Source of the DNA: Alphaproteobacteria bacterium
GTDB lineage: Bacteria > Pseudomonadota > Alphaproteobacteria > GCA-2731375
Length of the DNA stretch: 64,000 bases
Reading direction: 5' to 3'
Assembly: GCA_965225945.1 (NCBI GenBank)
Contig: CBDDBZ010000038.1
Coordinates: 480,001-544,000, forward strand
Shown piece after piece: positions 46,639 to 50,301 of this stretch. Every line of letters starts with the position of its first letter. Position 1 is the stretch's first letter. The notes under the pieces were generated by a model. It had not been told where the DNA came from, searched no databases, and saw only the letters and a program-made list of their open reading frames with translations. Both the position numbers and the translations under genes were made by a program.

Positions 46639-47586
46639 TTACGCATCAACCTCAGCCAATTTGAGGAGCCGATATGGCATGGGGGGCGTGCGCAGGGCGT
46701 CGCGTCCGAGGGCCTCGATCATGTCGGCGAGCCGGTAGCGGCGGTTATATCGGTATTGGAACGCCGCCAGGTAGCGCGGAACGTGTTTGGGCCGGATCGC
46801 ATGGTAGGTGCCACGCAGGGTGTTCTTGAGATTGCCGAGGGTGGTGTTGACCCATTTGAAGGCCGGCACGGCGACGGCCCCTGGTCCGGAGCCGGTGGGT
46901 ATCGGATGGTGGGCGCAGCCTTGCGCGGTGACCGCGGTGAAGCAGTTGAGCCCGTCGCTGAAGACGCTCGTCCCGGGGCTCAGGTCGCGCTTGGCCATCT
47001 TGGCGATTTCGGCCTTGCGGAAGCCCTTGACGCGGCGCAGCTTGATGCGCACGGGCTGGCCCTCCGCCGTGGTCTGGACGGCGGCGACGAACGGCGTCTT
47101 GCCCGGCGCGCCCCGGCCGCGCTTGGCCCCGGAACGGCGGCCGCCGAGGTAGGCGTCGTCCATCTCCACCCGCCCGGTGAGCGGCAATTTGGCGTCGCGC
47201 TCGAGCATGGATTGCATCAGTTTCTGCTTGATCTTCCAGGCCGTGGTCTGGGTGACGCCGAGCCGGCGGCCGAGTTCGATGGAGGAGATCCCCTTCTTCG
47301 ATTGGGTCATGTGATAGATCGCCGAAAACCACAGGGTCAGCGCCAGCTTGGTCGCGTGGAAGAGCGTGCCGGCGGTCAGCGAGACTTGATGACGGCAGGC
47401 GGCGCATTGGTAGAGCTTGCGGCCGGCGATCTCGCAATGGCGCGTGGCGCCGCATCGGGGGCAGGAGAAGCCCTCCGGCCAGCGCCAGCGGAACAGGGCC
47501 TCGCGACACTGCTGCTCGGTACCGTACAACTCACGAAAACGCGGCTCGCTGAGCCCCTTCTGGAACTGAACCTTGTTGCGTGGCAT
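46639..47586 (-). CDS. IS1595 transposase
   Basis: NKVQFQKGLS, zinc ribbon CPRC/CAAC, VEMDDAYLGG, FSDG, WVNTTLGNLK, YRYNRR. Confidence 0.93.
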   Translation of the reverse strand: MPRNKVQFQKGLSEPRFRELYGTEQQCREALFRWRWPEGFSCPRCGATRHCEIAGRKLYQCAACRHQVSLTAGTLFHATKLALTLWFSAIYHMTQSKKGISSIELGRRLGVTQTTAWKIKQKLMQSMLERDAKLPLTGRVEMDDAYLGGRRSGAKRGRGAPGKTPFVAAVQTTAEGQPVRIKLRRVKGFRKAEIAKMAKRDLSPGTSVFSDGLNCFTAVTAQGCAHHPIPTGSGPGAVAVPAFKWVNTTLGNLKNTLRGTYHAIRPKHVPRYLAAFQYRYNRRYRLADMIEALGRDALRTPPMPYRLLKLAEVDA

Positions 47587-47697
47587 CGTGAACCCCCTGA
47601 AAAACCGCCAAATGTTGTAACTACCCAGGTCTGATTGGCCCGAGCGTTTGTATGTGAGGGATCGTGGGGGTCCGGGCTGGTAGCGGTGCCGGTGTTC

Positions 47698-49236
47698 TCA
47701 GAGGCGCAGTTGGGGGATTAGTTGCATCGGATCGGGATGCACCAGGGTCTGGAGGACGTTCCAGCCTTGCTTTCGGGCGGTGGCGATGACGGCACGCATT
47801 CTGGCGAAGTTGTAGGCACCCCTCTCGGAGCGGAAGCCACCGGAGATCTTCTGGCGCAGCTTGGCCATTCGGAGGTCACGTTCGGCCTCATTGTTCGTAA
47901 ACGGCGTGCGCGGGTCGGTGAGGAATCGCAGGCATCCCTCCTTGTGCTTGCGGAGGCGGAGCGCGAGGTTATGACCGATGCGGCGTTTCTTTCGTCCGCG
48001 CTTGCCGGTCCGGAGCGGCGGCTGCGCCTCGTGGAAGGCGATGGCGTGGTCGAGGATGCGGGCCCAGGCCCGCGAGATCCGGGCCACCAGGGAGGCGGGC
48101 ACGTCGCGGCCGTTCTCACGGGAGAAGCGGGTAGCCCTGTGTGCGCGCTCAAGGAGGCGGTGCATGCTCTTTGCCCAGTCTTCCTTCTCGATGTCGATCA
48201 GGGCCTGGAGTTCGCGCAGGTGATGGGCGTTGCAGGCGCCGTGGCGCACGCCCTTGAGGGTGAAGTAGGCGGCGTAATCGTCATGGATGAGGATGCCTTC
48301 GAGGTCCTTTTCGACATCGCCGCGTCCCGCGCCGATGCGCAGGACGGTCAGGAATGGGGTGCACAGCACGTGGAGCCAGCGGGTACGGGCGGCGATCCGC
48401 AGGCCGGTTTCGTCGAGGTGCTTGACCGGGACCGCTGTGCGGATCACGTCTGCGACATGGGCGAGGAAGGGCTCGAAGCGCCTGGCGATTCGCCGGCCCA
48501 TGGCGGTGATCGTGGCTGTGGAGATGGACACTGCGAAGAGGTCGCTCATGAGTTCGGCCAAGCGCTTCTCGGGAACGAACTGGGCGTACAGCAGGTAGCT
48601 CACCCAGGCGGTGATGCGTGGCCCGTACTGGACCGGGGCGGTCACGCCGTCCGGGAAGACGGCTCCTGTCACGGTGGCGCAGGCGCCGCAGAGGCAGCGA
48701 TGGGCGCGGTGTTCGGTGACCTCCAGGGGGCGTGGCTCGGGCACATCGAAGACCTGTCGACAGACGGGCGCGCGGTGACGGTCGGCGTCCGACAGCGGTG
48801 CGCCGCAGCCCGAACAGGCGGAGGGGTCATGATCCACAACATGGTCCGGGCTCTCGGTCCGCGCCAGCGTCGTTCCCTTGTGGCCCGGCTGGCCGCCGCT
48901 TGGCCTGCCGGACTTGCCGCGCTGGCTTCGGGTGCGCCTCTGGGTTCCGCTCTTCTTGCGCAGGCCGTCGCTGGCGGGCGGCTTGCTGCTGGTGGTGCTG
49001 TCAAGCGCCGCGCTCCGCTCGAGCTCGGCGATGCGGTCCCGCAGGGTCGCGTTCTCCCGCTCGAGCGCGGCATTCTCCCGGACGAGCGCCGTGGCCAGGC
49101 GCAACAGCCCCTGGCCCCATTCCCGGAAGGCCTTGACGACTGTGATTGCGAAGGATGAGGGGTCAAGAAGATCTTGCAGGCACGCGAAGGCCTCGTCATG
49201 GGCGGCGAGGTCCTCGTGCCAGCGCGACAGCGTCAC
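47698..49236 (-). CDS. IS66 transposase (TnpC, ISBst12-like organisation without tnpA/tnpB)
   Basis: Leucine zipper, SSKPPASDG, GGQPGHKG, CSGCG/CLCG zinc finger, HLDETG, IHDDY, CNAHHLREL, TNNEAERDLR..KISGGFRS. Confidence 0.93.
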   Translation of the reverse strand: MTLSRWHEDLAAHDEAFACLQDLLDPSSFAITVVKAFREWGQGLLRLATALVRENAALERENATLRDRIAELERSAALDSTTSSKPPASDGLRKKSGTQRRTRSQRGKSGRPSGGQPGHKGTTLARTESPDHVVDHDPSACSGCGAPLSDADRHRAPVCRQVFDVPEPRPLEVTEHRAHRCLCGACATVTGAVFPDGVTAPVQYGPRITAWVSYLLYAQFVPEKRLAELMSDLFAVSISTATITAMGRRIARRFEPFLAHVADVIRTAVPVKHLDETGLRIAARTRWLHVLCTPFLTVLRIGAGRGDVEKDLEGILIHDDYAAYFTLKGVRHGACNAHHLRELQALIDIEKEDWAKSMHRLLERAHRATRFSRENGRDVPASLVARISRAWARILDHAIAFHEAQPPLRTGKRGRKKRRIGHNLALRLRKHKEGCLRFLTDPRTPFTNNEAERDLRMAKLRQKISGGFRSERGAYNFARMRAVIATARKQGWNVLQTLVHPDPMQLIPQLRL

Positions 49237-49898
49237 GGGTCCTCGGCATCGACGGCCATCATGGCGGCCAGCACCGCGAGGCGTTCGCCCGCCGGCAAGG
49301 CCTTGTAACGCCGGCCCCAGTTGGCCGCCTTACGCTTGATGCGCTGGCGGTCGGTGAAGTTCCGGCCTGCGTAGCTCGCCCAATGCACCCGGTCGGGCGC
49401 GAAGTTGAACCACACGACCTCGGTCCGCACCTGGGCCTGGGTCGTCACCTGCAGCGCCAGACTGCGCCAGCCCGCCAGCATCTCGTCATAGAGCGCCGAG
49501 GGATGGCCCGAGACCATCACCTGGCAGGGCAGATCCTTGAGCAGGTCCAGGAGCGCGACATGGTCGACCTCCTCGTAGTCGAAGCGATAGCGCCGTGCCG
49601 AACGGCGGGTCGCGTGCAGATAGGGGGGATCGCTGTAGACCAGCTCCGGGCCCAGAAACGGGAACGAGGCCAAAAAGGCATGGGCACAGCCATGCACCAA
49701 CTCGACCGGGTAGTCACAGGCAAAGGCCTCGAGCGCCTGCGCATCGCGGTCGATGCCGATCGAGCGCACGCCCGTTGGCTTGCGCTTCATCAGCGCACCG
49801 CCCCCCAGGTGGCTCTCGATGTAAACGCTGTGCGGCGGCATCAGCGCAATCAGCGCCTGGCACAGACCGCTCGTCGCCTTCGACCCAAAATATTCCAC
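49233..49898 (-). CDS. Compact DNA adenine methyltransferase (Dam/D12-like motif order)
   Basis: YFGSK (motif X), YIESHLGGG (motif I-like), IGID, LVYSDPPY (motif IV), VMVSG, RTEVVW; stop codon overlaps the transposase GTG. Confidence 0.85.
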   Translation of the reverse strand: MEYFGSKATSGLCQALIALMPPHSVYIESHLGGGALMKRKPTGVRSIGIDRDAQALEAFACDYPVELVHGCAHAFLASFPFLGPELVYSDPPYLHATRRSARRYRFDYEEVDHVALLDLLKDLPCQVMVSGHPSALYDEMLAGWRSLALQVTTQAQVRTEVVWFNFAPDRVHWASYAGRNFTDRQRIKRKAANWGRRYKALPAGERLAVLAAMMAVDAEDP

Positions 49899-49924
49899 GC
49901 GCCGCTCCCGTCACACGAGAGCGC

Positions 49925-49955
49925 AACCCATAGACGCCCGATTCTATGGAGTCAA
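49925..49955 (-). promoter_or_regulatory. Candidate sigma70 promoter/operator for the MTase-transposase operon
   Basis: TTGACT-N17-TATGGG; overlapping palindrome CCATAGA-N8-TCTATGG; two GANTC sites (49940-49944, 49949-49953). Confidence 0.5.
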
Positions 49956-50301
49956 GAGACGATCAACGACGCGGCGGCGGAAACCCGGCCCCGGCGACCA
50001 CCTACATCATCCTCTCGCGGTCAAGAGCGGGGTACCTGGGTAGTTACCAAATGTTTATGATTTGTACTAAATCGATCCGGCTGAGTAAAGTGCGTAATCA
50101 GGAAGTAGAATGACCCCTTTTTGCGGAGTCGTCGAGAGACGCCGCCGACGGCCGGCGCCACTTCCGCCGTGCCGTCACGGGAGCGGGGTCGTCATGCGCG
50201 CGGTCGATCGTCTGGTCGATGGCAAGGGCGGCGGCTGATCGCGCCCGCGTTTCCGCGCTATGCTCCCCGCCGGCACGGTAGTCGGAGGGGAGGACGAGAC
50301 G

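Follow-up and report, generated by a model that had tools for sequence, protein, structure and literature searches.

An IS66-family insertion sequence with a Dam-related adenine methyltransferase as its first gene, and a methyltransferase cassette common to several transposase families

Insertion sequences (IS) are usually viewed as a transposase gene and its two ends, and the accessory genes that some of them carry are family-specific, as with tnpA and tnpB of IS66 or TnpB of IS605. Control of IS10 and IS50 by the Dam methylase of the host is the textbook form of epigenetic regulation of transposition. A stretch of 64,000 nucleotides (nt) from an alphaproteobacterial genome (assembly GCA_965225945.1, contig CBDDBZ010000038.1, positions 480,001 to 544,000; hereafter the window, in whose coordinates positions are given) contains an IS66-family element in which a DNA methyltransferase (MTase) gene precedes the transposase gene, and thereby raises the question of whether mobile elements can carry along a methylation-based control, or an anti-restriction mark, of their own. 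We describe here a recently active, multicopy IS66-family insertion sequence without tnpA and tnpB, the first gene of which encodes a Dam-related MTase, and compare it with elements of other families that carry the same gene at the same place.

The element occupies positions 47617-50047 (2431 bp). Direct reading of 47609-50055 agrees with what a first-pass annotation, made from the letters alone, had described: perfect 14-bp GTAAC inverted repeats, with GTAACTACCCAGGT at the transposase-distal end (47617-47630) and its exact reverse complement at the MTase-proximal end (50034-50047), enclosed by an 8-bp target-site duplication, CAAATGTT, the left copy of which (47609-47616) is identical to the right copy (50048-50055); none of these terminal features is assigned a strand. 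Open reading frames (ORFs) and profile matches likewise bear out that the unit holds two genes only, both on the minus strand. The upstream gene (49233-49898) encodes a compact Dam-related (D12-class) N6-adenine MTase of 221 amino acids, recognized by its ORF, motifs, weak profile matches and predicted fold. The downstream gene (47698-49236) encodes a 512-amino-acid IS66-family DDE transposase, called from its ORF and profile matches, and starts with a GTG within the 4-nt GTGA (49233-49236, minus strand) in which the MTase stop and the transposase start overlap; a Shine-Dalgarno-like GAGGA lies just 5' of the overlap. No nuclease gene is present inside the 2431-bp unit, again as had been noted.

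The assignment to IS66 rests on both protein and ends. The transposase matches PF03050 (DDE_Tnp_IS66; 3.9e-41, 141.8 bits against a cut-off of 23.1) and DUF6444 (5.3e-10), and scores 290.7 bits with the IS66 transposase model NF033517 (cut-off 180). Termini beginning with GTAA and an 8-bp target duplication are features of the IS66 family, and GTAACTACCCAGGT and CAAATGTT display them. The tnpA and tnpB genes of classical IS66 were not found in the unit, which has only two long sense-strand ORFs, the upstream one being the MTase. IS66 members devoid of tnpA and tnpB are known, and those of the ISBst12 type share with the window element the IS66 DDE transposase (NF033517, PF03050), the GTAA termini, the 8-bp duplication and the absence of tnpA/tnpB. 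Members of the ISBst12 group have the transposase as their sole gene; the window element, in contrast, has a conserved 221-amino-acid MTase gene inside its inverted repeats, placed with its own putative promoter between one end and the transposase gene.

The proposal that both genes move as one unit is borne out by the copies in the same genome and by an empty site, and the arrangement goes well beyond chance. The host genome (G000; 6.27 Mb in 39 contigs) holds 15 full-length copies, 99.9-100% identical and distributed over 10 contigs, together with one interrupted copy. All 15 are bounded by the terminal repeats (one without the last 4 nt) and nine have perfect 8-bp duplications, two of these nine sharing identical flanks; the interrupted copy also has an 8-bp duplication, CCTCGATG, and the target sites of the copies are mostly AT-rich. 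The empty target site is found in a contig from a sponge-metagenome DNA run (X2), which joins 47606 to 50046 and shows an IS1595-family IS in uninterrupted form. In the window, the transposase gene of this other IS (46639-47586, minus strand, with flanks to about 50130; PF12762 2.1e-34, NF033547 191 bits) adjoins the MTase-bearing element, which is inserted 23-30 nt 5' of its start codon, inside the 5' end of the IS1595-family IS, so that the IS1595 transposase gene is probably cut off from its promoter.

In the interrupted copy (C38:239517-243982), the break is an insertion of 2020 bp between direct repeats of 15 bp, CCAGCCTTGCTTTCG. This insert is built of pieces repeated elsewhere in the genome, and a 15-bp duplication is unusually long. 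The genome as a whole is very rich in mobile elements and contains two further high-copy repeats of about 1080 bp (e.g. C35:34542-35621) and about 1229 bp (e.g. C31:229301-230529), which adjoin IS copies or sit inside them.

The same cell offers a natural comparator lacking the MTase. A transposase-only IS66 element of 1596 bp (e.g. C35:343371-344967) is present in at least 15 full copies, with an inverted repeat, GTAACTGCCCAGGTA, nearly that of the MTase-bearing element and with 8-bp duplications in all six copies inspected; its 486-amino-acid transposase is 53% identical to that of the window. This IS and relatives in three other genomes (G191, G151 and G275) have IS66 transposases 43-55% identical to the window's and no MTase. 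To judge by the sequences, the MTase is tied to a particular transposase clade rather than to IS66 in general. An extra gene within the IS's own ends is seen here; in a transporter IS (tIS) such a gene would be dispensable for transposition, and transposase-only relatives do transpose without it.

What kind of protein is the first gene likely to make? It has motif I as HLGGGA at residues 30-35 and motif IV as DPPY at 90-93, hence in the order I then IV; G32-G34 and D90-P92 do not vary across 24 homologues, in which conservation of Y93 is at least 90%. It matches the PHROG_56 DNA methyltransferase profile (1.1e-19), and PF02086 is matched weakly by 23 of the 24 homologues (best 3.3e-5). An AlphaFold model built from these homologues has a seven-stranded Rossmann core with two basic C-terminal helices (181-219) outside it, and a comparison of folds ranks E. 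coli Dam first (4rtl_A; E 4.8e-7, TM 0.54), ahead of DpnM and T4 Dam. A sequence search of solved structures returned only a marginal match to DpnM (E 0.2 with the single protein, 0.015 with a profile) and spurious TPR matches. In the DpnM alignment, MTase residues 37-85 correspond to DpnM 50-189, so that the target-recognition insert of Dam-type enzymes, some 90 residues long, is missing, and no extra target-recognition domain is seen between motifs I-III and motif IV in the model. From sequence and predicted fold, we read the protein as an unusually compact adenine MTase that is probably active. Telling against this are its scores with the curated models, which fall under the cut-offs both for TIGR00571 (2.3e-5, 24.2 bits, cut-off 114.85) and for PF02086 (13.1 bits, cut-off 22), and the only moderate quality of the predicted structure (pLDDT 69.8).

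The gene is far from confined to the window. Database relatives of the MTase number 3794 at E <= 1e-3, the best 120 being all at least 71% identical, and a scan of one genome per species gave at least 404 MTase-encoding stretches, the best 80 of which (L011-L090, in 39 genomes) were examined. With 80 related loci in 39 genomes, the one-off capture that the first-pass annotation had named as an objection does not hold, and neither does drift of the MTase: its ORF is uninterrupted in 77 of the 80 loci, and the ratio of nonsynonymous to synonymous substitution rates (dN/dS) has a median of 0.23 and a maximum of 0.41 (19 representatives, 151 usable of 171 pairs), a value of about 0.2 holding along the whole gene. 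The MTase is under purifying selection.

Throughout the 80 loci the MTase is 70-100% identical, and the transposase downstream varies. It is an IS66 transposase 70-98% identical to the window's at 13 loci (IS66a) and one only 28-47% identical at 36 (IS66b); the IS66 model NF033517 gives 247 bits for L061. Four loci have a transposase of the IS701 family (lineage a; NF049999, 309 bits, with L024 of the IS701-type loci L024-L027 at 309.1 against a cut-off of 170), four an IS701-like one (lineage b; 156 bits, with L056 at 156.2, just under the same cut-off), and 19 an unclassified 429-amino-acid protein, here called the DDE_Tnp_1 type, with weak matches to DDE_Tnp_1_assoc/DDE_Tnp_1 only and no NCBIfam match; the remaining four show no downstream transposase, the element being truncated or the contig ending. 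The first-pass idea of an IS equipped with its own MTase therefore stands in part: the element is an IS66 without tnpA/tnpB and the MTase is its first gene, but the MTase is not specific to it, being common to IS701-family and DDE_Tnp_1-type elements.

When copies are compared within a genome, every type proves to be a multicopy IS in its own right, with the MTase lying inside inverted repeats and duplications that belong to that type. The DDE_Tnp_1-type unit is about 2145 bp long, with the inverted repeat CAGCAGTTCTCATTTTG, duplications of 7-9 bp and, among the loci examined, 8 and 7 copies in two genomes. The IS66b unit (about 2290 bp; GTAACTACTCACCCCCT; 8-bp duplication) is multicopy in three genomes, and two copies in one genome each were found for IS701a (2781 bp; AGCTCGACTTTGTACATTT) and for IS701b (2789 bp; CTCGAGAGTCCCG / CTCGTGAGTACCG; 7-bp duplication). 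IS1634 was considered as a further partner family and rejected: the IS1634-type gene at L063 is an insertion into an IS701b copy, the uninterrupted form of which is seen at L043.

Between the types, nucleotide similarity covers only the MTase ORF and, ahead of it, no more than 73 nt. Positions 77-816 of the window element, counted from 50047 on the minus strand, match positions 483-1225 of the IS701a element L024 at 84.7% identity and the rest is unaligned; counted from the MTase-proximal end, positions 73-742 of the IS66b element L039 match the DDE_Tnp_1 type at 81%. What is shared is thus a cassette of about 740 bp, composed of the MTase gene and a leader of some 60-70 nt, in which lie a promoter-like element and a ribosome-binding site. 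In the window this exchangeable cassette (promoter/dyad, ribosome-binding site and MTase ORF) spans 49232-49971 on the minus strand and is the sole nucleotide similarity to the IS701-type element.

The order of end, promoter/dyad, MTase, transposase and end is constant in at least five IS lineages, namely two IS66 clades that diverge deeply from each other, two lineages of the IS701 type and the unclassified DDE_Tnp_1-type lineage, and the transposase gene is always 3' of the MTase on the same strand. The MTase stop and the transposase start overlap by 4 nt in IS66a and in the DDE_Tnp_1 type (by more in L029), and are separated by 3-36 nt in IS66b, 67 nt in IS701a and 82 nt in IS701b. The IS701-type elements have about 480-550 nt between end and cassette (L026:3446-4000, L056:3448-3990), as against 25-100 nt in the other types. 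In several lineages the cassette-bearing elements reach 7-16 copies per genome, and their presence in at least three transposase families at such copy numbers speaks for a general benefit to the element, whichever transposase it has; the shared cassette ahead of the transposases suggests that it helps the elements to spread or to control themselves. Most related records are metagenome-assembled genomes; the identical architecture is present in closed long-read chromosomes as well.

Phylogenetic trees of the MTase place IS701a within the IS66a clade (support 99) and the DDE_Tnp_1-type sequences among IS66b (support 96-97), with IS701b in two places, and the tree calls for no fewer than 10 switches of partner label, the minimum being 5. 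With three plasmid homologues as outgroup, and leaving aside the broken MTases of L023, L025 and L041, the MTases borne by IS fall into a single clade, which has a stem of 0.81 and its root among IS66b. This nesting of the other IS types inside a clade rooted in IS66b implies that the cassette moved between IS families several times. Two genomes carry two MTase-bearing IS types side by side (IS66b and the DDE_Tnp_1 type), an opportunity for cassette exchange by recombination. At L066:1918-3060 elements of these two types lie less than 1 kb apart, and L029/L065 are also loci of genomes with both types.

The sampling behind this picture limits how broadly it may be taken. The proportions of partner types come from the best 80 of at least 404 stretches and are not a census, and taxonomy is unreliable for several of the cross-phylum records, which are contigs of 2-4 kb from binned genomes. 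Of 400 genomes sampled evenly from the phylum, none apart from the window's own had the IS-type MTase, so that its distribution is patchy. Among 400 evenly sampled genomes of the class, close relatives of the transposase turned up in one other genome only (G006).

Within the leader of the cassette, a promoter-like element with a dyad lies in the window at 49927-49955 on the minus strand, as TTGACT (-35), 17 nt and TATGGG (-10). An alignment of the leaders gives TTGACA, 1-2 nt and CATAG-N10-CTATGGT in 79 of 81 sequences (44 distinct 35-mers), an arrangement that can be taken as a -35 hexamer separated by a 17-nt spacer from a hexamer resembling a -10 (TATGGT or TATGCT, and TATGGG in the window). 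The inverted repeat CATAG/CTATG covers the spacer and the -10, its form in the window being CCATAGA-N8-TCTATGG, and CATAG-N10-CTATG at 49929-49948 is the sole match in the 64-kb window, with 0.01 expected. Among the 44 distinct sequences, 76% of the dyad cells are paired, compared with 29-46% for partners slid out of register. Covariation scores 0.226, where shuffles give 0.153, and none of 500 shuffles reached that value. Three sequences have the compensatory form CGTAG/CTACG, and the dyad is extended inward in several.

Several points weigh against a control role for this promoter-like element. A consensus promoter scan flagged no promoter-like site in 47500-50200, a silence explained by the TATGGG at the -10 position in the window; the promoter function of the element is accordingly putative. 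The half-sites CATAG and CTATG do not occur at the IS termini, and elsewhere in the elements their frequency is about that expected. The dyad could be a site for a host factor, or could merely hold the level of MTase low with no effect on transposition. Of the functions that the first-pass annotation had proposed, regulation of the element ends thus finds no support, the dyad half-sites being at the promoter and not at the ends, and regulation of the MTase's own promoter has circumstantial support from the conserved dyad over the -10 region.

Restriction shielding, also proposed there, has circumstantial support of another kind, from relatives on plasmids and phages. The nearest relatives of the MTase outside IS elements are orphan MTases of conjugative plasmids and phages, 44-59% identical, which are 224-238 amino acids long and homologous over residues 1-204 or more, including the C-terminal FTDRQRIKRKA...AER. 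Plasmid homologues, annotated as 'DNA adenine methylase' and 45-55% identical, were found on 189 plasmid records, which are conjugative in 134 cases, and retain the glycine-loop and DPPY motifs. In the six plasmid neighbourhoods examined, transfer genes, StbB and CcgAII flank the MTase in one and a MobF relaxase is nearby in another; the transfer genes include TraA/TraD, and a SprT-like or zinc-metalloprotease gene is near the MTase in three of the six. Viral homologues are 45-59% identical and present in at least 149 viral contigs, for instance beside gpA in a P2-like prophage. The IS-type MTase itself was not found on plasmid or viral records, where all matches are below 60% identity.

The closest homologue outside IS elements, 55% identical, is on a Xanthomonas oryzae plasmid (NZ_CP101720.1, L091), between a CcgAII gene and hypothetical genes and near stbB and traD. 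Two tandem ATAG-N10-CTATGCT dyads stand upstream of it (L091:4800-5000), so that the control element predates the capture of the MTase by IS elements. The plasmid and phage orphans are thus homologous to the IS-borne MTases and of the same compact size, and the closest shares the upstream dyad; they differ in not lying inside an IS, and the IS-borne MTases form a separate clade on a long stem. An IS1380 element (ISSp1) beside a Sphingobium plasmid homologue was set aside as incidental, for the IS downstream varies among sphingomonad plasmids, which have IS6100, IS256 or Tn3 there instead. The P2-like prophage (L109:83-4678, IMGVR_UViG_2898854145_000006) carries a 318-amino-acid Dam-like MTase (PHROG_56 7e-102), the gpA replication nickase and then the compact homologue, at about 50% identity, so that a single phage has two adenine MTases that differ in build.

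How might the cassette serve the elements that carry it? The reading we put foremost, though we hold it at somewhat less than an even chance, is that it serves the transposase as a control region that is self-contained and portable. The cassette promoter would be the point where transcription starts, and the transposase would come only from the second cistron, its translation often coupled to that of the MTase. The MTase would feed back on its own promoter through the CATAG-N10-CTATG dyad over the -10, by adenine methylation or by binding, and would thereby place a copy-number-dependent, possibly replication-coupled, limit on transposase synthesis in any host, by analogy with the action of host Dam on IS10, IS50 and IS903. 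The MTase would probably also methylate the genome at large, with a short or relaxed specificity; this would be its ancestral role on plasmids and phages, and such methylation may help element-carrying DNA to survive restriction. A sharper version, in which the dyad adenines are methylated and the operon fires only from hemimethylated DNA after replication, or shuts off as copies accumulate, would be a portable epigenetic switch; drawn from the analogy with Dam, it seems to us rather improbable in this specific form, and, if true, it would explain why the same cassette occupies the same position in IS66, IS701 and DDE_Tnp_1-type elements. Two considerations count against a control region: the activity, the specificity and the promoter effect of the MTase are predictions from sequence, and the plasmid and phage relatives indicate anti-restriction as much as regulation.

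As the chief alternative, the cassette might be an anti-restriction passenger only, its relaxed methylation protecting carrier DNA in new hosts and its dyad just autoregulating MTase dosage, with no role in transposition. We consider this somewhat unlikely as the full account. It draws on the nearest non-IS relatives being orphan MTases on conjugative plasmids and in viral contigs, the excerpt of PMC11541004 counting orphan MTases as prominent in plasmid leading regions; on the IS-clade MTases being 70-89% identical across several phyla and present in sponge metagenomes, which implies frequent horizontal transfer; and on the predicted lack of a target-recognition insert, which fits a short or relaxed specificity. 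Protection alone, however, does not explain why the cassette lies directly 5' of the transposase, on the same strand and often coupled to it, in five lineages, and the IS-type MTase was found on no plasmid or viral record. The control-region and anti-restriction readings are not mutually exclusive.

The other accounts fare worse. An MTase-derived DNA-binding repressor acting on the dyad, with catalysis lost or unused, would suit the overlap of the dyad with the -10, the two basic helices (181-219) that the model places outside the Rossmann core, and scores under the curated Dam-model cut-offs, yet it is very unlikely in view of the invariant G32-G34 and D90-P92 and the well-conserved Y93, the same motifs in the plasmid relatives, and a dN/dS of about 0.2 along the whole gene. 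Passenger-carrying IS exist, and the excerpt of PMC11891212 lists methyltransferases among the passengers, but an incidental one-off capture by an ordinary transporter IS hardly accommodates 80 loci in 39 genomes, repeated placement in different IS families, purifying selection and high copy numbers with an intact MTase, and we give it very little weight. The prevalence of metagenome-assembled genomes among the related records could raise the suspicion of a chimeric MTase-transposase join from assembly or binning; 15 full copies with precise ends on 10 contigs of one genome, the same architecture in closed long-read chromosomes, contigs from independent runs that cover the junction, and the empty-site contig make such an artefact a negligible prospect.

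The control-region reading can be set against known systems. Adenine methylation over a transposase promoter limits transposase synthesis to hemimethylated, post-replication DNA, as described for Dam with IS10/Tn10, IS50/Tn5 and IS903 in the excerpt of PMC9296519. The likeness lies in the dyad overlapping the -10 of a putative promoter ahead of the transposase operon; the difference is that the MTase there belongs to the host and the site is GATC, whereas here the MTase would be element-encoded, so that the comparison is a working analogy. Among transporter IS, the excerpt of PMC11891212 (citing Siguier et al.) lists methyltransferases as passenger genes, for example in IS220 of the IS1380 family. 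A tIS such as IS220, which we compare by its description, resembles the present elements in that inverted repeats of its own bound it and that the transposase is accompanied by a further gene; what differs here is that one MTase family (at least 70% identical) recurs with its promoter-like leader in three transposase families and is operon-linked.

For the protective role, PMC11541004 (excerpt) ranks orphan MTases with the most prominent of the functions that leading regions of plasmids are enriched in, and they are believed to shield incoming DNA. M.EcoGIX and M.BceJIII are orphan, single-strand-specific MTases of plasmid leading regions, which make N6-methyladenine (m6A) with relaxed specificity (SAY) and aid plasmid establishment, according to the excerpt of PMC7736820. 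As orphan m6A MTases with DPPY they are a functional precedent only. Homology to them was rejected: they belong to the beta class, with motif IV before motif I (PMC7736820, same excerpt), and the window MTase has motif I before IV and matches Dam/DpnM.

In the literature searched, which lay outside ISfinder, TnPedia and REBASE, we came upon no account of this MTase within IS66, IS701 or any other IS, nor of a cassette shared between IS families, and the excerpts of the pink-berry methylome (PMC9296519) and sponge holobiont (PMC11410982) papers do not describe the element. IS with passenger MTases are already catalogued; an MTase cassette common to several IS families, as the sequences show here, we have not found described.

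As to where the element lives, it is found almost whole in sponge metagenomes and also in eight metatranscriptome runs from three studies. RNA-library contigs from two of the studies, X1 (47614-49362) and X5 (47617-49341), bridge the junction of MTase and transposase. These contigs may stem from contaminating DNA, several of them running into flanking DNA, and with such carry-over possible they are weak evidence of co-transcription; as they show no starts, strand or level, we claim no transcript structure from them.

For annotation, the finding means that 'DNA methylase' genes beside transposases should be read as parts of IS and not as orphan MTases of the host. A compact adenine MTase that appears to lack the target-recognition insert is of interest for its specificity. 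And if the cassette is a portable switch, control of the IS10/Dam type would travel with the element, and the control of transposition would be independent of the host.

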